64,000 nucleotides of DNA from a virus (lineage: Duplodnaviria; Heunggongvirae; Uroviricota; Caudoviricetes), in IMG/VR virus record IMGVR_UViG_2617270980_000003. The stretch is one strand, 5' to 3'. Numbering within the stretch: the first letter of the stretch is position 1; the number at the start of each line of letters is the position of its first letter. The notes beneath the pieces are model-generated. The model saw only the letters and a list, made by a program, of their open reading frames with translations. It was not told where the DNA came from and ran no database searches. Shown piece by piece: positions 26,291-59,102 of the stretch. A program made the translations under genes and the position numbers.

Positions 26291-26356
26291 GATTTAACCA
26301 AATGAAATAAAAGGATTTATTTCAGGTCATGTCCACTTACCGACCACATCTATTCA

Positions 26357-26381
26357 AAAGCCCCGCAATGCGGGGCTTTTA
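26357..26381 (-). terminator. Rho-independent terminator immediately downstream of ogr
   Basis: GCCCCGC-aat-GCGGGGC 7-bp stem flanked by A-run and T-run. Confidence 0.6.
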
Positions 26382-44960: not shown

Positions 44961-45033
44961 GTTCTTTCCTGCCGGTTGGTTTCTGTTTTTCCATGATGTC
45001 AGTTGCTAAGTCATTGTCTCAACGCGTTTTAGT

Positions 45034-45051
45034 TGTCAGAGACGGCCCACA
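45034..45051. promoter_or_regulatory. Ogr-type late-promoter activator site (TGT-N12-ACA) between divergent O and P
   Basis: TGTcagagacggcccACA, roughly equidistant (~75-82 bp) from O ATG 44960 and P ATG 45117. Confidence 0.6.
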
Positions 45052-45116
45052 ACCCAAACAGCGGGAACGGCCCACGCGCGCGGGTTAATCTCTCCATCGA
45101 AACGAGAGGACACCGC

Positions 45117-46841
45117 ATGATCCAGGACGCATTTGTAAGACAGAGAGCAAAGCAGCTTTACTGGCAGGGCTACCCGCCAGCAGAGATCGCACGCCTGATG
45201 GGTATCAGTCAGAACACGGTTTATTCGTGGAAAAAGCGCGACGAATGGGACGAAACGCCCGCGATTCAGCGCGTCACACAATCTATTGATGCCCGGTTAT
45301 GCCAAATCGCGATGAAACCAACAAAGACCGGCGGCGATCTGAAGGAAATCGACGCGCTCACGCGCCAGGTGAAGAAGCTGGCAGAAGGCCAACCGGCGCA
45401 ACCCTTCAAGAAAGCGCGCGCGGGCAAGAAGAAAAACCACTTCACCGAAGCGCAGATCGCCGCGCTGCGGGAAAAAATTCAGGACTCTCTGGCCTGGCAT
45501 CAGCAGGGATGGTTTGAACAGCGCCAGCAACGAAACCGCATGATCCTGAAAAGTCGCCAGATTGGCGCAACCTGGTATTTTGCCCGCGAAGCGCTATTAC
45601 AGGCGCTGCGGGATGACGTTAAGCACGGATACCAACGCAACCAGATTTTTCTGTCAGCGTCACGCCGCCAGGCGCACCAGTTCCGGGGATTCATTCAGAA
45701 GATTGCCGAAGAGGTAGACGTAGAACTAAAGGGCGGTGACAAAATTTTGCTGTCTAACGGGGCTGAATTGCATTTTCTCGGCACGTCTGCCGCTACTGCG
45801 CAGAGCTACACCGGCAACCTGTTTTTTGATGAATTTTTCTGGGTAGGCAACTTTGCCAACCTTCGCAAAGTGGCTGGCGCTATGGCAACCCTGAAAGGGC
45901 TTACGCGCACTTACTTTTCAACGCCATCGAGCGAAAGCCACGAAGCCTACCCCTTCTGGACGGGCAAGCGCTGGAATGAGAAGCGGGCCAAGTCCAGCAG
46001 GGTAGACTTCGACACAAGCTGGAAAACGCTAAACAGCGGCCTATTGTGCCCGGACAAAACCTGGCGGCAGATTGTCACCCTAAAGGACGTGATCGACCAC
46101 GGCTGGGAGTTCACCGACCTGGAAGAAATCCAGGACGAAAACACCCCGGACGAATACACCAACCTGTACATGTGTGAGTTCGTCAGAGAAGGCGAGGCTG
46201 TTTTCTCACTCAATCAGCTACTGACGTGTGGCGCGGACGGCTACGACGACTGGCAGGACTGGAAACCCTACGCACCCCGCCCGCTGGGTGATCGTGAAGT
46301 CTGGATAGGCTACGACGCCAACGGCGGCAGCGGCAACGGTGACAGCGGCGCTGTTTCCGTGGTTGCCCCTCCCCTTGTCAGTGGCGGCAAGTTCCGCACG
46401 ATAGAGACGCGCCAGCTACGCGGGATGGAGTTTGAAGAACAGGCCAAAGTGATCGAAGACCTGACGATGAAATATAACGTTCGACACATCGCAATTGACG
46501 GCACCGGCATCGGTGAAGCGGTCTGGCAACTGGTCAAAAAGTTCTTCCCGGCTTCGGTCTGTTTCATAATGTCGCTGTCATCAAAGCGCACCCTGGTACT
46601 GAAAATGCAACAGGTGATCCGCGCGGGGCGCTGGGAGTATGACCGCAGTGAACAGGCGCTAGTGTCAGCATTCAACGCTGTCAGAAAGATCACCACCCCC
46701 GGCGGACAAGTCACTTATGACACCGACCGCGCGCGCGGAGTCAGTCACGGCGACTTAGCCTGGGCCAATATGCTGGCAGTCATCAACGAGCCGCTTGGAC
46801 GCGAGAACGGCGGCGGCGGTAGTTTCGTTATGGAGTTTTAA
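45117..46841 (+). CDS. P: Terminase ATPase (large) subunit (P2 gpP-like); track start 45033 is TTG upstream of the promoter element
   Basis: ATG 45117 preceded by GAGAGGA; 574 aa; divergent from O as in P2. Confidence 0.9.
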   Translation: MIQDAFVRQRAKQLYWQGYPPAEIARLMGISQNTVYSWKKRDEWDETPAIQRVTQSIDARLCQIAMKPTKTGGDLKEIDALTRQVKKLAEGQPAQPFKKARAGKKKNHFTEAQIAALREKIQDSLAWHQQGWFEQRQQRNRMILKSRQIGATWYFAREALLQALRDDVKHGYQRNQIFLSASRRQAHQFRGFIQKIAEEVDVELKGGDKILLSNGAELHFLGTSAATAQSYTGNLFFDEFFWVGNFANLRKVAGAMATLKGLTRTYFSTPSSESHEAYPFWTGKRWNEKRAKSSRVDFDTSWKTLNSGLLCPDKTWRQIVTLKDVIDHGWEFTDLEEIQDENTPDEYTNLYMCEFVREGEAVFSLNQLLTCGADGYDDWQDWKPYAPRPLGDREVWIGYDANGGSGNGDSGAVSVVAPPLVSGGKFRTIETRQLRGMEFEEQAKVIEDLTMKYNVRHIAIDGTGIGEAVWQLVKKFFPASVCFIMSLSSKRTLVLKMQQVIRAGRWEYDRSEQALVSAFNAVRKITTPGGQVTYDTDRARGVSHGDLAWANMLAVINEPLGRENGGGGSFVMEF

Positions 46842-47902
46842 TGAACACAACAACACATGAAAGCGGTATGACCATGCTTACTGACGGCGCGCAACAGGCT
46901 GATATTGGCGAAGCACTAAAGCGCGATCCCGCTCTGAGCGCCTTCACCTTTGATGGGCCATACCAGGTCGCGGACGCTTACGACCTACTCGACAATATGT
47001 ATTGCGCCGACAACGGCAGATATTACGAAACGCCGGTGGACTGGTACGGGCTTGCGCGTTCATTCGGCAAAGCATCCTGGCACCAGTCAGCGCTGTACTT
47101 CAAGCGCAACGCGCTGGCGGGATGCTTTATTCCACACCCGCTACTGTCTCGCCAGACGTTCTCCGCCCTGGCGCTTGACTGGTTTGTGTTTGGCAACTTC
47201 TATCTTGAAGAACGAAAGAACCGGCTAGGCGGGCGGCTACCGCTTCGCCATTCCCCTGCGAAGTACACCCGGCGCGGCACCGACCTGGACACGTACTGGT
47301 TTATCAGGCAGTGGAAAGACGAATGCGCCTTTGAAACCGGCACAGTTTGCCACGTGCTGAACCCCGATATTCACCAGGAAATCTACGGGATGCCGGAATA
47401 TATGGGCACCCTGCTGTCAGCCAGCCTGTCACACTCGGCGGACATGTTTCGCAAAATGTACTATGAGAACGGATCTCATGCTGGCTGCATTCTTTACATC
47501 GGCACATCACAGGTAGATGACGCTGGTGTAAAACAGATACAGCAAACACTGGCAGGAGCCAGGAACAAAGGCGCATTTAAGAACGTAGTGATCCACGCAC
47601 CAGGCGGCGGCAAAGATGGGGTACAACTGATGCCCTTCAGCCAGATATCTGCAAAGGATGAGTTTTTAAATATTAAATCAGCTACGCGTGATGACATCCT
47701 TGCCGCTCACCGCGTACCACCGCAACTGATGGGGGCCATGCCGGACGGCAACGGCTCATTCGGTGATATGGAGAAAGCCGCGCGCGTGTTTGCCATCAAC
47801 GAACTGATGCCAGCAATGGAAGCACTGAAGCACGTCAACGACTGGCTTGGCGAAGAAGTGATCCGCTTTAAACCTTACGCCCTGCTTGAATCCACCAAAT
47901 AA
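46841..47902 (+). CDS. Q: Portal protein (P2 gpQ-like)
   Basis: 353 aa, start overlaps P stop. Confidence 0.9.
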   Translation: MNTTTHESGMTMLTDGAQQADIGEALKRDPALSAFTFDGPYQVADAYDLLDNMYCADNGRYYETPVDWYGLARSFGKASWHQSALYFKRNALAGCFIPHPLLSRQTFSALALDWFVFGNFYLEERKNRLGGRLPLRHSPAKYTRRGTDLDTYWFIRQWKDECAFETGTVCHVLNPDIHQEIYGMPEYMGTLLSASLSHSADMFRKMYYENGSHAGCILYIGTSQVDDAGVKQIQQTLAGARNKGAFKNVVIHAPGGGKDGVQLMPFSQISAKDEFLNIKSATRDDILAAHRVPPQLMGAMPDGNGSFGDMEKAARVFAINELMPAMEALKHVNDWLGEEVIRFKPYALLESTK

Positions 47903-48130: not shown

Positions 48131-48241
48131 CGTGCACTTGCAGATCCACCGCCAGCCCCCGCAGATCCTGCCTCGATAATCCCAAAAAGGGGCTGATTTT
48201 ATTGTGCATTTTTGCGCACAATCGTGCATCACTTTACTCTA

Positions 48242-48307: not shown

Positions 48308-49657
48308 ATGCGATTGACCGCTCCTGTTAAAGCGTTCTCAGATGGTTTTAGTACAGCAGATGACATATTTGGACGTAAAAAACTTCATGACATCATCATG
48401 CGGGTAGCAACAAATGCCCCAGATAAAAGTCTTGTACTTGCGCTCAATGATGAATGGGGTAACGGAAAAACCTCATTTGTAAAAATGATGTCATCAGAAA
48501 TAAATAAAAACCATGCTGACAACTTTGACGTTATTTACTTTGACGCTTTTGAAAATGACTATCAATCAGACCCATTTGTAGCCTTAACATCAAAAATTTA
48601 TTCACTCATAAAAAAAGAAGATGGAAAGCTTAAAAACCTCGGGAAAGAGTTATTATCCATTGGTAAAAAACTAGGCGCGTCATTCGCACTTAATGGTGCA
48701 AAATTTGCCGTAAGCACTTTCACAAGTGGATTAGTCTCAGGTAACGCACTGGAGAAAGCAAGTGATGCCATCAGTGACTCTCTCACATCACCTATTGAAG
48801 AGTACATTGAAGAAAAAATAAAAACGAGCGAGAGTGAGTTAGCAACAATTGAGCAATTTAGAGCATTGCTGACCAAGATTCACACTGAGTGTGGGAAAAA
48901 AATAATATTTATAATTGATGAGCTAGACAGGTCGCGACCTGATTTTTCCCTTGACTTGCTAGAGAAAATAAAACATATATTTTCAGTGGAAGGTTTTGTT
49001 TTCTTACTAGTAGTTAACCGTGAGCAGTTTGAAAAAAGTATAGAGTGTAGATATGGGAGCATAAATACAAGATTATATTTAAATAAATTTATTCATTATT
49101 GGTTTACTCTTCCTAAAAAAAGTATGCTCTCAGTAGGCTGCCGAGCAGGCTATGAACGTTCAACGTTAACACAATATCTCCTGTCGTTAGATCAAGGGAA
49201 TGACATACTGATTCGGAATGGTTCTCTCGTAAAAACCCTCGCGTATCTTCTAGAAATGAATAACTGTTCACTGCGAGAGGCTGAGCGTTGCTATTCAACA
49301 TTCGCAATAATGAACGACCCCAGCGAAGTAAATTCCTACCGACATGAAATATTTCATGTTGCCATCGCACTAGTTGCTTTCTTGAAAATATTCAACCAAT
49401 CCTTACTCATGGAAATATTAAACAAAAAACTGACAGAAGATGAGATATTTAAACGATTATCAATTCCTGTAAACCTTGTCGATGTTTCTGAGATTTATTA
49501 TATTGCAATATTGTTAAAATACCACTTAGCCACCGATGAAGAACTACGTTCCTCTGATATGCTCACTGAGTACGCATTCATGGCTGTAATACCTGGACAA
49601 CGAGTCAAATGGTTTGAAATGATGTATGAGAAGATCGAAGGCTTTGATATTAACTGA
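48308..49657 (+). CDS. KAP-family P-loop NTPase (cargo gene in P2 old/tin hotspot)
   Basis: 449 aa; Walker A NDEWGNGKTSF, Walker B IIFIIDELDRSRPD, hydrophobic stretch between them; AT-rich by eye. Confidence 0.75.
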   Translation: MRLTAPVKAFSDGFSTADDIFGRKKLHDIIMRVATNAPDKSLVLALNDEWGNGKTSFVKMMSSEINKNHADNFDVIYFDAFENDYQSDPFVALTSKIYSLIKKEDGKLKNLGKELLSIGKKLGASFALNGAKFAVSTFTSGLVSGNALEKASDAISDSLTSPIEEYIEEKIKTSESELATIEQFRALLTKIHTECGKKIIFIIDELDRSRPDFSLDLLEKIKHIFSVEGFVFLLVVNREQFEKSIECRYGSINTRLYLNKFIHYWFTLPKKSMLSVGCRAGYERSTLTQYLLSLDQGNDILIRNGSLVKTLAYLLEMNNCSLREAERCYSTFAIMNDPSEVNSYRHEIFHVAIALVAFLKIFNQSLLMEILNKKLTEDEIFKRLSIPVNLVDVSEIYYIAILLKYHLATDEELRSSDMLTEYAFMAVIPGQRVKWFEMMYEKIEGFDIN

Positions 49658-49718: not shown

Positions 49719-49740
49719 GCCGCCAATCCCGGCGGTCTTT
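49719..49740 (+). terminator. Rho-independent terminator after the KAP NTPase gene
   Basis: CCGCC-aatccc-GGCGG hairpin followed by TCTTT. Confidence 0.45.
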
Positions 49741-49936
49741 GAAGGGCATTACAATTTCGTGGCGCTCAGTTATACATGGATTCTTAGCAAGGACCAAGCC
49801 GCGACACACTACATTGTAGCTCCCCGCTATGTGATTTGAAGTTGCTGGCAATCAAAAAATGCTCCCTTTAGTACCACTAATTTTGTAGAGTATGGTTAAC
49901 TTTGAAAAGTTGTAATACGTCAACTAAGGAACAGCG

Positions 49937-51088
49937 ATGTCATCAGAAAAAACAATAGAACGTTTCGTTGCAGCAGATGTTAGCGGTGCAATCTGGTTAC
50001 GATTAAAACGATTAATGAGTGCGCAGCTCTGTAAGAAAATAATAGAAAATAATCATCCGTCATTGCAAGAGGATGTATTGATTAAAAAATCCATTGGAAT
50101 GTCCTCCGCAATACGAAGTGCAATCGGATATTGGGAGACTGAAAATGGCGGACTCAATTCAAAAATTTTATCCAGATATTATGCATTATTACAGATAAGC
50201 TTAGCTGAACAAATATCATCAGGGGATCCTAACGACGATTTAAAAAATGTTCAAAAGCATACGGTTTCAGGTCATGGGCTATTCACACAATCTGTTGAAA
50301 ATGAAACATTCCCAGACAATATAAAAATAGGCTGTCTTAAAAGTGGACATTTTTATTCATATGCAAAGCATATAGGAATTGATATCAAACAGTATGCAAC
50401 AGAAAGACGTCCAAAAAAAGATGAAGATTTAGACCCATCACGCACCTATTCTTTAACTGATTTATTAAAACGAATTCCAGAATTAAGACCGCTTTTACAA
50501 GAAACTTTCGGTGAAGATCCACTTTCATTCCAAATTGGACAAGCAAGTAGAAACATGCTCTTAAGATCAAGGAATCAGTCACTCGGTGGCCTATCGCGTC
50601 CTAAACCAGAGTTCTCAGGTTTTACATATGCCGCAATTTATCCCAAAGGTAGCGATGTAACAGCAGAAGAGCTTAATTCTTACAACATTGGAATAAAAAA
50701 CATTGAAATTGAGTCAGAAGAAAACCTCACAAAATATGACCAACCATATTTTGTAGGAGAAGTCCATCACCCTGAAGATGAGCTATGGTGGGATTATGTC
50801 ACGACACACAAATCTGGTTATTGTGGAACGAGTGTAATTGTCCCATTTTGGGGAACTCAAGATCCCTTTGTATTACACTTAGTCGTATTATATACATTAA
50901 GCATTATAGTCAGGTATCTCCCTGACACTTGGTATGAGATTGAGCATGGCAAACTTGATTATATTAATTCCCTTTTGGAAAATTATTTAGCTATTTTTGA
51001 TAGTGTACTGCCTAAACTTGCGGTTGAAAGATTAACGAAAGTTCATTTGGTAGTAACAGCACCCGATAGCATGAATTCCCCTATCTAA
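49937..51088 (+). CDS. Hypothetical protein (second cargo gene in hotspot), no recognisable domain
   Basis: 383-aa ORF, AT-rich, own upstream region; C-terminal hydrophobic segment PFVLHLVVLYTLSIIVRYL. Confidence 0.6.
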   Translation: MSSEKTIERFVAADVSGAIWLRLKRLMSAQLCKKIIENNHPSLQEDVLIKKSIGMSSAIRSAIGYWETENGGLNSKILSRYYALLQISLAEQISSGDPNDDLKNVQKHTVSGHGLFTQSVENETFPDNIKIGCLKSGHFYSYAKHIGIDIKQYATERRPKKDEDLDPSRTYSLTDLLKRIPELRPLLQETFGEDPLSFQIGQASRNMLLRSRNQSLGGLSRPKPEFSGFTYAAIYPKGSDVTAEELNSYNIGIKNIEIESEENLTKYDQPYFVGEVHHPEDELWWDYVTTHKSGYCGTSVIVPFWGTQDPFVLHLVVLYTLSIIVRYLPDTWYEIEHGKLDYINSLLENYLAIFDSVLPKLAVERLTKVHLVVTAPDSMNSPI

Positions 51089-51092
51089 CCAC

Positions 51093-51136
51093 TTTCAGAA
51101 TAACAAGATTTTTTACAACACCTTGTTATTCTGAAA
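51093..51136. repeat. Perfect 15-bp inverted repeat (hairpin) between convergent cargo gene and A-operon end
   Basis: TTTCAGAATAACAAG-14 nt-CTTGTTATTCTGAAA. Confidence 0.5.
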
Positions 51137-51157
51137 CTTATACCTTACAACACATTA

Positions 51158-51469
51158 TCAATCATCATCTTGGTCATCCCCAGTGTCGCGAACGCATGAT
51201 TTTGACTCAAAGTATTTTTTTTCCGCAGCGGTAATCAGGGCTTGGTGTTCAGGGAAATCACGAAACACGTCTACTGCGGGCCATTCAATTTTCGTCACAA
51301 CCAACTTAGGCCTACTTTCCACCTCAGCTTCATCCTGGCTGATATAATGACTTTTTGACTCACGTTCCTCATGCGAAGATTCTCGATAATAGAGCCAATT
51401 TTGATAGTCAGCTTCCCGTTCATAATCATCAAAGTACTTGCCCACGCTTCCCCCCATTAATGAGCGCAA
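51158..51469 (-). CDS. Hypothetical acidic small protein downstream of A (overlaps A 3' end)
   Basis: 103-aa ORF with C-terminal ...DTGDDQDDD; may be spurious. Confidence 0.3.
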   Translation of the reverse strand: MRSLMGGSVGKYFDDYEREADYQNWLYYRESSHEERESKSHYISQDEAEVESRPKLVVTKIEWPAVDVFRDFPEHQALITAAEKKYFESKSCVRDTGDDQDDD

Positions 51470-54008
51470 CCCTTAATCTTTCAAGGAGTACATCATTCTC
51501 CCGCTTCCTTTCCGCTTTAACTCTCTGCTTAACTTCATCGCGGCGCTGTTCGACTACTTCTACCCCCTTCAGCTTCATAGTACAAGCCAAGCAGAGCTTT
51601 TCATCGCCATAGGTTATATCATCCTGATTTAACTCCGCATTACAATCTCTAGCCCTACAGTAAATTGCTTTGGTCTTTTCTACCAGATAGCCATCCTTCA
51701 GATAAACATGTCGATCATCAAAAGAAAGCAAAGCCCCGCGACGAAGGGCATCAATATCAGGCTTGGACTTAATTCCCCAAGAGGAAAGCTGATAGCGAAG
51801 GTGAGCAGTCATTGGTGTGGCCTCCACAACACTGCTCCGCCGGGTTGCTGATTCATCGCGGATAGCCGCCGCCACTTTCATGTAATTTTCAGCGCGCTCC
51901 TGATCTGCGCTATCGCAATCTGAAGCGGCAATAGCATTGGCAAGCGACTCAAACACATCAGCAGGTGATTTTTGCTGTTTTGGTTTGTAATTTCTGATGC
52001 TCTCATTAAGCCGTTTTTTCTGCTCTCGGCTCATTTGACCAATTTCATATTGTTCTGGATCTTCAGGCGGTGGATTTACCGCCCCTTGATTTGTATGTTT
52101 TTTGTACTCAGTACAGTTATTGACACGAGTCCAAGAGGGCGCGGGCGCGCCCTTAAGGTCAAAACCTCGATCGGCGGCGTCGTCTGCTTTTGGCTTCTTT
52201 TTGACAATGCGATAAGAATGGAGGCGGGTTTCAACCGGAGGAACGGTCGATGCTGGCATGACCACCCCTTTAATAACCCTCTGAAACTCGCCGTAACTGC
52301 TCGGCTCATCCCGATATTGATACCAGGCGCGCAACACAAGCCTATTCCGTGTCACGAACGGACCACCCTGCAAGGTGATGTAGTCCTGCCAGTTCCCGGC
52401 ATGGGCGGCGCGGTGTAACTCACCGAAAACCGGACTGATTCGATCTGCCATTTCCTGATTCTTCAGGCGGCGTAACTCACGCCAGACGGACACCGGCGCG
52501 CCACCCAGAAACTGAAACTGACGAATGCCCCAGCATGAAGCCCAGGCAGTAGCGTGTTTTGCTGTCTCCTTCAGTGGGCGTCCGCTTTCGTCGTCGCTTT
52601 CACCATCCAGTGCATAACCGTCGATGTTTTTAGATATGTACTTAACGACATATCCAGTAGCGCTCCCCAAAGCCGGATCTATCGGCTTAAGTTCAAAGCG
52701 GGGCTGTTTGCCATTCTTGCCGGTGAGTTCATCAGCATCTTCACGCGTGGCGTAGTCTTCCATCACTTCCAGCAATTCGCCGGTATGCTCTGGGGCTGTG
52801 AACAGAAGGCCATGCCAATGCGGAGTACCATCATGGTGAGACTCTGCAACACGAAGGCCAAAAACAGAAATCTCACGGCGCGCAAGCTCCGCGCGGATCA
52901 GTTGCCAGACGCGATTAAGGTAGTTTTGTGTCTTGCGGGGGCTGGCTCCGTTCCATTTGCGGTTACGATGCCCGAACGCTGTAAAGGCATGATATTTAGA
53001 CGGCGCGGTCAGGGTGAAGAAACTGCCGGCAAACCCGCTTTCCGTTGCCACCTTCTCAAATCCACCAATGCGCGTCATCAACTCAACACGGCGCTTTTCA
53101 GGATTAGAAATGCTCTTATCAATCTGCTCTATCAGCGAAATGCGCTCACCAGTTACCTGATCTTCAAGTTCAAGGCGGCTCATAATTGCGCGGCTACGCT
53201 TACGGCGTGAATCCCACTGCGTAACGTGGTGTTTGCTGCAATACGGTGAAACATCGCGGCGCACGTCACCATAGGCAATGTGCAAATGCTCGCGCCAGCG
53301 GCGGGCGTACTTGCGCAGGAGGCGTGACCAAAAGCGATCATGAAGGGTTTTTTGTATTGCTGCTGTCGCTTCATCAAGCGCCATCCGGCGCTTCTTCGCC
53401 CAGGGCGGCACTAACCTGAAATACGCAATCAGCCTGGAGCCTTCACGCAGCATGCGTTTGGTGTATTCAGTATCGTTGAACACACTTGCACCCTCGCTCA
53501 CTTCAGCCAAAACAGCATTGGCATAAATGGCTATGTCCTGAGCCAGCAAATCAATATCTTCATCCGTGCAATCCGCCAGATTATTAAAGCGGCGGACAAG
53601 TTCACGCAGATTTTCAAACGAGTGAAACAGTGGGTTTAGTTCAGAGAAAATGATCCACTCATTGTCTTCTGGCACAGCGTATTGTTTCGTGACGTTTCTG
53701 ACGTGTGGAAGCTCGCGCTTAACGATGTCGCGCAACTTCAGTTTTGCGATATGGCGCCCTTTATCCTCGTGAACGGTATTTATGTAAGAGGCAATGCGGC
53801 GGCGAATGAAGATAGGCAACGGCTTGAGGGGATTTTCAACCCAGGCGAAAAACTCCTGCTCTTGACCCAATTCATATAGATCAACAGCGGGAGCCTTATC
53901 AACGAAGATGGCGGCTTTTGGCTCATTCCAGGCGTAAGCATACCGGGCTGGCTCGATAGAGCCTCCCGGCATGTTGGTCATGCTATGAGAGCGGCGAAAT
54001 GAAGACAT
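51429..54008 (-). CDS. A: Rolling-circle replication initiator (P2 gpA-like HUH endonuclease)
   Basis: 859 aa; HUH motif ...HHDGTPHWHGLLF... and Tyr motif ...GYVVKYISKN...; early-operon position. Confidence 0.85.
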   Translation of the reverse strand: MSSFRRSHSMTNMPGGSIEPARYAYAWNEPKAAIFVDKAPAVDLYELGQEQEFFAWVENPLKPLPIFIRRRIASYINTVHEDKGRHIAKLKLRDIVKRELPHVRNVTKQYAVPEDNEWIIFSELNPLFHSFENLRELVRRFNNLADCTDEDIDLLAQDIAIYANAVLAEVSEGASVFNDTEYTKRMLREGSRLIAYFRLVPPWAKKRRMALDEATAAIQKTLHDRFWSRLLRKYARRWREHLHIAYGDVRRDVSPYCSKHHVTQWDSRRKRSRAIMSRLELEDQVTGERISLIEQIDKSISNPEKRRVELMTRIGGFEKVATESGFAGSFFTLTAPSKYHAFTAFGHRNRKWNGASPRKTQNYLNRVWQLIRAELARREISVFGLRVAESHHDGTPHWHGLLFTAPEHTGELLEVMEDYATREDADELTGKNGKQPRFELKPIDPALGSATGYVVKYISKNIDGYALDGESDDESGRPLKETAKHATAWASCWGIRQFQFLGGAPVSVWRELRRLKNQEMADRISPVFGELHRAAHAGNWQDYITLQGGPFVTRNRLVLRAWYQYRDEPSSYGEFQRVIKGVVMPASTVPPVETRLHSYRIVKKKPKADDAADRGFDLKGAPAPSWTRVNNCTEYKKHTNQGAVNPPPEDPEQYEIGQMSREQKKRLNESIRNYKPKQQKSPADVFESLANAIAASDCDSADQERAENYMKVAAAIRDESATRRSSVVEATPMTAHLRYQLSSWGIKSKPDIDALRRGALLSFDDRHVYLKDGYLVEKTKAIYCRARDCNAELNQDDITYGDEKLCLACTMKLKGVEVVEQRRDEVKQRVKAERKRENDVLLERLRVALINGGKRGQVL

Positions 54009-57208: not shown

Positions 57209-58222
57209 ATGACAATTAAGAAACTCGATGATGGTCGTTATGAAGTGGACATTAGACCTAGCGGACGCAACGGAAAACGCATCCGCAGGAAGTTTGACAA
57301 GAAAAGTGAGGCAGTGGCCTTTGAGAAGCACACGCAATACAACCACCACAACAAGGATTGGTTAGCGAAGCCGACCGATAAAAGGCAACTTTCCGAATTG
57401 ATTCAAATCTGGTGGGAACTCAAGGCAAAGCACGAGGAATGGGGAAAGTACAATCGGGGAAAGGTCGAGAAATTCGCGGCGATAACCGGTGATCCGTGCG
57501 CGTTTCAGATTACAAAGACGGTAATTAGCCAGTATGTTGCAGCTCGGCGAGGTGAAGGCGTTAAGCCATCTACCATCAATCGGGATCTGACATGCATCAG
57601 CGGAATGTTTACCGCTCTGATTGAGGCCGAGCTATACCATGGCGAACACCCGATAAGAGGACGTAAACGACTCAAAGAGGAGAAGCCCGAAACGGGCTAT
57701 TTAACCAACGAGGAAATTACCGCCCTTTTCTCGCGGCTCGATGGTGACAATAAAAAAATAGCGGTTCTTTGCCTAAGCACGGGCGCTAGGTGGGGTGAAG
57801 CGGCAAAACTGAAAGCCGAGCACATCATCCATAATCGGGTGACGTTTGTTAAAACCAAAACGAACAAACCCCGAACGGTGCCAGTATCGGCAGAAGTATG
57901 TGAAATACTCACCAGCGTGAAGCGCGGCTTCCTGTTCCCGAATGCCGATTACACGTTGTTCCGGCAGGTACTGAAAGAGGTAAAGCCCGACCTGCCAGCA
58001 GGACAGGCAACCCATGCTCTACGGCACAGTTTTGCTACGCATTTCATGATTAACGGAGGAAGCATTATCACGCTACAAAGGATACTCGGTCACGCGCGCA
58101 TAGAGCAGACAATGGTCTACGCGCACTTCGCGCCAGAGTATTTACAAGATGCCGTAACACTCAATCCGTTAAAGGGCGGCATTGAACCCGAAAACGTCCA
58201 CACAGTGTCCACACTCGGGTGA
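57209..58222 (+). CDS. int: Tyrosine integrase (P2 Int-like)
   Basis: 337 aa; C-terminal catalytic region ...HALRHSFATHFMINGGSIITLQRILGHARIEQTMVYAHF... Confidence 0.9.
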   Translation: MTIKKLDDGRYEVDIRPSGRNGKRIRRKFDKKSEAVAFEKHTQYNHHNKDWLAKPTDKRQLSELIQIWWELKAKHEEWGKYNRGKVEKFAAITGDPCAFQITKTVISQYVAARRGEGVKPSTINRDLTCISGMFTALIEAELYHGEHPIRGRKRLKEEKPETGYLTNEEITALFSRLDGDNKKIAVLCLSTGARWGEAAKLKAEHIIHNRVTFVKTKTNKPRTVPVSAEVCEILTSVKRGFLFPNADYTLFRQVLKEVKPDLPAGQATHALRHSFATHFMINGGSIITLQRILGHARIEQTMVYAHFAPEYLQDAVTLNPLKGGIEPENVHTVSTLG

Positions 58223-58526
58223 TTTATAGCGGCTTTCAGTGGCTTTATGTGGTGCTCAAACCCGCATTACACCGCTGAAAGCCCGTATATCAAAGGGCTA
58301 CCAACGCCCCCGATGGAGCCTTCATTTTCACTTTCTTAAATCTAACGATAGACGGCTAACATTTAAGTATTGTGAAATATTATCAAATGTAATCATCATT
58401 GATTTACAAAAGATACATTTTGCCCCGAAAGGATTCCTGTCAGAAACATCAAAAGATGATGTTCTATACTGAGAACCATGGCAACACGGGCATCTAAAGT
58501 GAATATGGTTTGTAATATTTTCTACC

Positions 58527-58742
58527 TCAAAGTGCCACAACATGAACAGCCGCGGGGCCTTTAGGTCCGTTCTCAATACCAAATTCGACTTCCTGATTCT
58601 CAGTTAACGTTTTGAAATCGTTGCTCTGAATAGCTGAGAAATGGACAAACACATCTTTGCTACCATCTTTCGGCGTGATGAAACCAAAACCTTTTTCAGG
58701 GTTAAACCATTTCACTAAACCAGTCATTTTGTTAGACATCAT
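58527..58742 (-). CDS. cspI: Cold-shock protein, CspA family (CspI-like prophage moron)
   Basis: [38 protein letters not shown]... with RNP1/RNP2 motifs; sits downstream of Rz as cspI does in Qin. Confidence 0.75.
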
Positions 58743-59102
58743 TATTACCTTTTGAAGAAGTTAGCCCTTGGGCAGAATGGTCCGAAAAAAAATATCAGAG
58801 AGAAAAACCAACAAGGAAATCTCAAGAGGTACAAATAATAAAATTATAACAATGACTGCTTCAGATAATTTTGTAACAAACCAGAACACCATTAACGCAT
58901 GATTAACCAACCATAGCAAGGATTACTTTTGTAAAGAAAAACACACGAATGAAACAATAGCTTTATTTATTAATAAAACGTGTCATTCTGTCTAATGACC
59001 TTTTATCTTACCCTTAAGATTTCAAGGATTTTGACTCATGGAAGAGTCCTTTTTATTTAAATTTCACATTCAGCGCTAAAAATAATCCGATTTAATATTA
59101 AT

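Follow-up and report, generated by a model that had tools for sequence, protein, structure and literature searches.

The AT-rich hairpin that separates a cargo gene from the replication operon of a P2-like prophage is probably the transcript-end element of a mobile gene cassette carrying a YaaC-like gene, remodelled from an intrinsic terminator and insulating two converging transcription units from each other. Judged from comparison of its sequence with that of related loci, its most likely function is that of a transcription barrier combined with a protector of the mRNA 3' end. The prophage lies in a stretch of 64,000 nucleotides, which was analysed as a whole and is called the window below.

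A perfect hairpin between convergent genes

An earlier note on this DNA had described a perfect 15-bp stem with a 14-nt loop at 51093-51136, placed between a plus-strand cargo gene and the end of a minus-strand replication operon, and the letters read as claimed. The relevant features of the region are as follows:

45033-46841, plus strand: terminase
46841-47902, plus strand: portal gpQ
48308-49657, plus strand: KAP-family P-loop NTPase, the second hotspot cargo gene (PADLOC candidate PDC-S20, E 1e-74; phrog_8614)
49719-49737, no strand assigned: canonical GC-rich terminator AAAAAGCCGCC..GGCGGTCTTT, past the end of the KAP NTPase gene and ahead of the YaaC gene
49923-51141, plus strand: extent of the mobile YaaC cassette, from the ribosome-binding site through the ORF to the 3' hairpin
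49937-51088, plus strand: YaaC-like cargo gene, 383 aa (PF14175)
51093-51107, no strand assigned: left arm of the hairpin, TTTCAGAATAACAAG; its outer 9-10 nt are lineage-specific and its inner ACAAG is part of a conserved core
51108-51121, no strand assigned: loop, ATTTTTTACAACAC, apparently what is left of the inner stem after decay of the ancestral core hairpin
51122-51136, no strand assigned: right arm of the hairpin, CTTGTTATTCTGAAA
51137-51236, plus strand: C-rich, G-poor tract 3' of the hairpin (C/G 1.86, 95th percentile of the window)
51158-51457/51469, minus strand: conserved 95-103-aa ORF ending the gpA operon
51429-54008, minus strand: gpA replication endonuclease, 859 aa (PF05840)

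The two units converge on a spacer of 69 nt from stop codon to stop codon, of which the hairpin takes up 44 nt. The stop codon of the YaaC-like gene is at 51086-51088 and the stem begins 4 nt later; on the other side, the stop codon of the minus-strand small ORF (51158-51160) is 21 nt off the stem. That the plus-strand gene is cargo agrees with its YaaC-like product (PF14175), its GC content of 40% and its position inside the variable gpA-gpQ hotspot, an interval that in P2 is a defence hotspot (PMC9122126); GC content is about 40% across the cargo region as a whole and 52-56% in the phage backbone. The minus-strand unit is likewise the replication operon that it had been taken for, with gpA (PF05840) followed by a conserved ORF of about 99 aa and preceded by a D12 methylase and Cox-region genes. 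Homologues of the small ORF (25 in Enterobacterales, with 51-99% identity and always about 95 aa) show it to be a genuine gene; no homology to P2 Orf91 was found, though its position in the operon matches. The KAP NTPase gene has a canonical terminator of its own, and the KAP NTPase and YaaC genes therefore seem to be separate units rather than a two-gene operon. The same terminator (49719-49737) could catch minus-strand read-through beyond the hairpin.

The stem consists of 15 perfect pairs, 4 of them G/C (27%). Within the loop, ATTTT and AACAC pair at three of five positions, and a TTAC tetraloop could form at the cost of two mismatches. Among perfect inverted repeats with loops of 3-30 nt, this is the longest in the 64-kb window; the runner-up (11 bp) is a canonical terminator at 26356-26380. 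In 200 composition-preserving shuffles of the window, made in 500-nt blocks, the longest stems were of 9-13 bp, and a stem of 15 bp was reached in none (0/200). RNA folding gave -16.5/-17.1 kcal/mol on the plus strand (z -8 to -9; loop of 14 nt) and -19.8/-21.5 kcal/mol on the minus strand (z -5.7 to -8.9; loop of 10 nt), and on neither strand was any shuffle equally stable; DNA folding gave -12 and -13.2 kcal/mol.

The hairpin is unique in sequence as well. No second copy of the arm sequence with up to two mismatches was found in the window, no match to the hairpin sequence was found in 5,426 complete E. coli genomes, and in IMG/VR the full palindrome occurs only on the window's own contig, at 100% identity; a REP- or MITE-type repeated element is ruled out by the single arm in the window and the restriction of the palindrome to its own contig. 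A known RNA family was also rejected, as Rfam returned only generic hairpin models (eukaryotic miRNA, snoRNA) at 9-19 bits, all below gathering thresholds of 42-94. Elsewhere in the window, at 58481-58897 on the minus strand, the Rfam model of the cspA thermoregulator is matched over its full length (109.8 bits). This site is a short way past the prophage integrase (57209-58222); in E. coli, the related ES1 prophage abuts cpxP instead.

The hairpin travels with a mobile YaaC cassette

In the E. coli ES1 prophage homology to the window breaks at 48228 and restarts at 51940, and in Salmonella prophages it breaks at 48152 and restarts at 51213. The Salmonella P2-like prophages have both gpA (859 aa) and the small ORF beside a different cargo gene (274 aa), and the hairpin is absent from the neighbourhood of their small ORF. 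Since it is missing from these prophages and lies inside the variable DNA, the hairpin belongs to the cargo side of the junction, and by this comparison we regard it as the 3' element of a mobile YaaC cassette, neither a neutral separator nor a feature of the phage backbone. A gpA site or an origin in the replication module was considered and ruled out: the Salmonella prophages have gpA and the small ORF without the hairpin, and the hairpin accompanies YaaC into contexts unrelated to P2.

The 3' end of the replication gene varies too. The interval 51213-51939, holding the final ~170 gpA codons and the small ORF, has no counterpart in the ES1 prophage of E. coli, a close relative, and is found with 88% identity in P2-like prophages of Salmonella, which suggests that the replication-gene 3' end is itself modular; gpA is 859 aa long in the window and 761 aa in P2. 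The Salmonella hotspot (L150, 5400-5445) has a 274-aa cargo protein without Pfam match whose stop codon is adjoined by another perfect AT-rich hairpin of 12 bp (GAATGGTAATAG/CTATTACCATTC), without U-tract. This second case suggests that hotspot cargo genes are commonly followed by AT-rich hairpins lacking a U-tract.

Homologues of the YaaC-like protein (73-88% identity) were located in at least seven unrelated mobile-element contexts; the relatives drawn from genome, metagenome and viral contigs numbered one, two and three loci, one of them a 29-residue fragment and one the window itself. The contexts are:

L014: another P2 gpA-gpQ hotspot, with a DUF2806 partner
L007, L020/21: P4-like satellites, downstream of the primase
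L008/9, L029: P2 region near gpV, with RES and reverse-transcriptase genes
L015/16: lambdoid prophage, between the Q antiterminator and a methylase
L017-19: integrase island with Abi_alpha
L024-27: downstream of umuDC
L028: another P2-like element

The limits of shared DNA coincide with those of the gene and its hairpin. In nine of the 11 other-context loci homology to the window starts at 49923-49925, 12-14 nt before the ATG, and in the other-context loci it ends at the stop codon or within the hairpin (51087-51126); L014 alone, whose downstream genes are those of the window, stays colinear past this point. The interval 49923-51141 is the only DNA common to the window and the YaaC loci in other genomic contexts. 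Outside the window lineage, a conserved non-coding stretch, TTTTTAGCATTCCTTTAAGACNCATGTCCGCT, lies about 60-100 nt past the hairpin in YaaC loci (L007, 6200-6250; L008, 6215-6250; L015, 5200-5240; L017, 5205-5240) and is absent from the window.

The YaaC-like gene has the appearance of a promoter-less single-gene cassette residing in known or likely defence hotspots, at times with varying partners (KAP NTPase, DUF2806, Abi_alpha). Searches of PADLOC and PHROG with the gene gave no match, and a literature search on YaaC in defence returned nothing relevant, with no mention found of "YaaC-like" or PF14175. We consider the gene a candidate for an undescribed anti-phage gene. No close copy of the cargo gene, the small ORF or the hairpin was found in complete E. 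coli genomes, phage records or plasmids.

A core hairpin shared among YaaC loci

At eight of the 11 distinct YaaC loci a stable hairpin starts 1-21 nt past the stop codon, with folding energies of -14.6 to -18.4 kcal/mol. A core, CACAAGGTATT/AATACCTTGTG, is common to eight loci including the window, with a few compensatory and wobble changes, and has the consensus GCACAAGGTATT-TTAA-AATACCTTGTGC over these eight. In the alignment of the 12-pair core helix 91.4% of cells are paired, as against 32-56% when the partners are slid. Changes on both sides are seen at three core pairs, for example UA/AU to CG/GC in L014, where GGTATT/AATACC has become GGCGTT/AACGCC. The observed covariation score was matched in 14 of 500 shuffle controls and the observed number of pairs changed on both sides in 87 of 500, so that the covariation, drawn from a sample of eight distinct sequences, lends modest support to a conserved structure.

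The strand on which the structure is favoured is that of the cargo transcript. Through G-U wobble, eight cells of the alignment can pair in the YaaC-sense RNA but not in the antisense, and two show the reverse; the core hairpin is more stable in the sense strand at six of the eight loci; both biases point to selection at the RNA level on the cargo transcript.

Around the core the loci diverge. The outer stem is ATAG/CTAT in L017, AAGCCAAA/TTTGGTTT in L026 and TTTCAGAAT/ATTCTGAAA in the window; each lineage's outer stem, though different in sequence, extends the helix. The tails also differ: L017 and L026 have U-rich tails (TTGATTGTTTTT; 5 U among the first 8 nt and 9 among the first 12) and by these tails resemble canonical intrinsic terminators, L007 and L015 have tails of the form TT(T)GCTTAATTA, and those of L008 and L029 are weaker. 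In L020/L021 there is a weak outer stem of the window type only (-2.6 kcal/mol), with the shared junction ATTCTAAACTTAT kept in L020, and in L024/L025 the hairpin is essentially lost, indicating that the hairpin is dispensable for the gene in two lineages.

Two further observations on the core were set aside. What looked like an inversion of the loop with respect to L007 proved to be an artefact of near-palindromic symmetry, a colinear alignment being better. The loose core pattern CACAAGGT..ACCTTGTG occurs in at least 120 IMG/VR contigs; among the matches listed none is beside a YaaC gene, and these matches were discarded as chance palindromes.

Proposed roles in termination, insulation and protection of the transcript end

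Canonical intrinsic terminators were defined by a G+C-rich stem of about 5-14 bp, a loop of 3-8 nt and a U-rich tract directly after the stem. The window hairpin departs from this definition in its stem (27% G/C), its loop (14 nt) and its tail, which reads CUUAUACC on the plus strand and GUGGUUAG on the minus strand, with 3 U among the first 8 nt on each; the absence of a clear U-tract on either side, as the earlier note had remarked, is thus confirmed, and a scan with a consensus terminator model did not call the site. Position is another matter: the hairpin lies where a transcription unit ends, just past its stop codon, and this position is kept in eight of the 11 loci. As in bidirectional terminators of convergent genes, a single stem is stable on both transcripts (-16.5 kcal/mol on the plus strand and -19.8 on the minus strand), but the A-tract and U-tract flanks of such terminators are lacking, the flanks being CUAACCAC and CUUAUACC. 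With neither a U-tract nor a GC-rich stem, autonomous intrinsic termination at the window hairpin is probably inefficient.

Published work offers two precedents for assistance. In convergent genes, stem-loops have been found to set the place of the polymerase collisions by which transcription is terminated (Wang et al., bioRxiv 10.1101/2022.10.23.513370), and REP hairpins without a U-tract can act partly as Rho-dependent terminators and as mRNA stabilisers (Harris et al., bioRxiv 10.64898/2026.03.23.713779). Over the 100 nt 3' of the hairpin the C/G ratio is 1.86 on the plus strand (95th percentile) and 0.86 on the minus strand (33rd percentile), a measure of composition only; the tract at 51137-51236 is a possible Rho loading region for plus-strand RNA, and help from Rho is less plausible in the minus-strand direction, where the downstream sequence is not C-rich.

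We therefore envisage the following course of events, in conditional terms. The stem-loop would fold in the nascent YaaC mRNA 4 nt past the stop codon, and also in the RNA of the converging gpA operon, where it follows the stop codon by 21 nt, and would pause or destabilise RNA polymerase arriving from either direction. Release of the RNA would probably be assisted, either by Rho acting on the C-rich untranslated plus-strand RNA downstream or by head-on and trailing polymerase collisions at the hairpin-induced pause; we further suppose that the outer stem may invade the AU-rich RNA:DNA hybrid. The stable stem would then shield the resulting 3' end against 3'-to-5' exonucleases, and the net effect would be that a constitutively expressed cargo gene and the early (replication) operon of the phage are spared mutual antisense read-through. 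As a counterpoint, the stem starts 4 nt past the YaaC stop codon, a distance covered by the footprint of a terminating ribosome, which could hinder its folding on translated mRNA.

Part of this scheme may suffice to account for the hairpin. If Rho or the next terminator-like site stops transcription and exonucleases trim the RNA back to the stem, the hairpin would be a 3' stabiliser only and would merely set the mature 3' end and the half-life of the YaaC mRNA. The missing U-tract and AT-rich stem speak for such a role, as do the C-rich, G-poor tract directly after the hairpin on the plus strand, the similar stability across lineages (near -15 to -18 kcal/mol) with or without a tail, and the behaviour of REP hairpins. 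We nonetheless consider it unlikely that the role is restricted to stabilisation, as the closest relatives with U-rich tails resemble true intrinsic terminators, suggesting that termination was the ancestral role, and as a barrier to polymerase would be useful in a convergent arrangement. The two roles are compatible, and stabilisation is a sub-variant of the main explanation, that of an insulating transcript end.

Probable remodelling in the window lineage

The closest comparison is with L014, across a region of about 80% identity to the window. Here the right arm and the 3' half of the loop are identical at 30 of 31 positions, and the left arm has been rebuilt. The L014 hairpin combines a strong 10-bp inner stem with a bulged outer stem; in the window the inner stem departs from the core by two mismatches and has become the 14-nt loop, so that the 15-bp helix is made of the last five core pairs and ten outer pairs. 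Stability is unchanged (-16.5 kcal/mol in the window versus -18.4 in L014).

These differences are consistent with an ancestor that was a conventional intrinsic terminator, consisting of the core CACAAGGTATT-loop-AATACCTTGTG and a U-rich tail. In the window lineage the inner stem would have been weakened by two mismatches and the U-tail lost, and an outer extension of 9-10 bp (TTTCAGAAT/ATTCTGAAA) would have been gained, with stability held near -17 kcal/mol throughout.

The same mismatches and the same missing tail could also be read as decay, the hairpin being a functionless relic of a terminator that has drifted since the cassette landed against the gpA operon, and its perfect stem a recent accident such as a template-switch copy of one arm. 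The loss of the hairpin in some lineages (L024, L020) fits this account, and the copies of the exact window allele are all identical, so that selection within the allele cannot be judged from them. Yet decay does not yield fifteen contiguous perfect pairs, nor a total stability equal to that of the relatives, and the right arm is conserved at 30/31 positions against L014 between flanks of about 80% identity, while L014 pairs with it through a differently built left arm; we think a relic distinctly improbable and favour a remodelled transcript end.

Relation to known systems

Among described elements, the nearest are the intrinsic (Rho-independent) terminators of enterobacteria, with which the window hairpin shares a stable stem-loop a few nucleotides past a stop codon, homologous to the U-tailed hairpins of L017 and L026; it differs in its AT-rich 15-bp stem, its 14-nt loop and its lack of a U-tract. 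Like the bidirectional terminators mapped by SEnd-seq (Wang et al.), it is a single palindromic hairpin in a short convergent spacer that folds on both transcripts. In the collision model of those authors the hairpin serves as pause and barrier and release requires collisions. Typical bidirectional terminators have a GC-rich stem between an A-tract and a U-tract, and the window hairpin is flanked by neither. The window holds a textbook example for contrast with its AT-rich hairpin, AAAAGCCCCGC-AAT-GCGGGGCTTTT at 26356-26380.

The REP elements (Harris et al.) are comparable in being extragenic palindromes without a U-tract at gene 3' ends, with the same proposed dual role, whereas the window hairpin is a single-copy element, unrelated to them in sequence and without a match in the 5,426 complete E. 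coli genomes. At the same hotspot position of P2 itself, the A-orf91 operon and the cargo genes old-tin run towards each other, and the 38-nt spacer of the orf91/tin junction contains an AT-rich 8-bp hairpin, ATTTGCTT/AAGCAAAT (L156, 3625-3660, equal to P2 30624-30659); this hairpin is much weaker than that of the window and spans the orf91 stop codon, and both its sequence and the cargo differ.

A palindrome directly 3' of a promoter-less mobile single gene is superficially like an integron cassette with its attC site, and the window has ATCTAAC at 51083-51089, which fits the attC R'' consensus RYYYAAC. An attC-like site was ruled out, since this R''-like match overlaps the stop codon, there is no GTTRRRY and the stem is perfect; an integron setting was ruled out as well, the neighbours being the P2 portal, the KAP NTPase and gpA. 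More broadly, homology among other-context YaaC loci stops in or just past the hairpin (51088-51141), as would suit an element acting as DNA, be it a palindromic protein site or a hairpin or cruciform cassette boundary promoting attC-like or palindrome-mediated recombination, but we hold this very unlikely: there is no R' box, extrahelical base, integron integrase or cassette array, the R''-like match is lost in relatives, compensatory and wobble changes with a sense bias favour an RNA structure over a sequence-specific double-stranded DNA site, the palindrome is not repeated in the window, the fetched loci or IMG/VR, and no matching repeat exists at the 5' boundary of the cassette. It is just as improbable that the 3' palindrome is a structural boundary letting YaaC move between P2-like, P4-like and lambdoid hotspots and islands; nor do we expect, with any greater likelihood, that a hairpin or cruciform is a favoured breakpoint for illegitimate or template-switch recombination, an analogue of attC without an integron integrase.

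Implications

As a transcript-end element, the hairpin is of an ordinary kind. Alone it matters little, being probably one more case in which a gene gained by horizontal transfer, and placed head-to-head with a phage operon, is terminated and insulated by a stem-loop. The YaaC-like cassette is the more interesting by-product, with its many hotspot contexts and its absence from the defence-system libraries searched. The hairpin offers a modest illustration of a terminator that appears to travel with a defence-hotspot cassette and to be rebuilt while its stability stays constant, and it may be relevant to the annotation of terminators missed by consensus scanners and to the autonomy of cargo genes that are shuffled between phages and their satellites.
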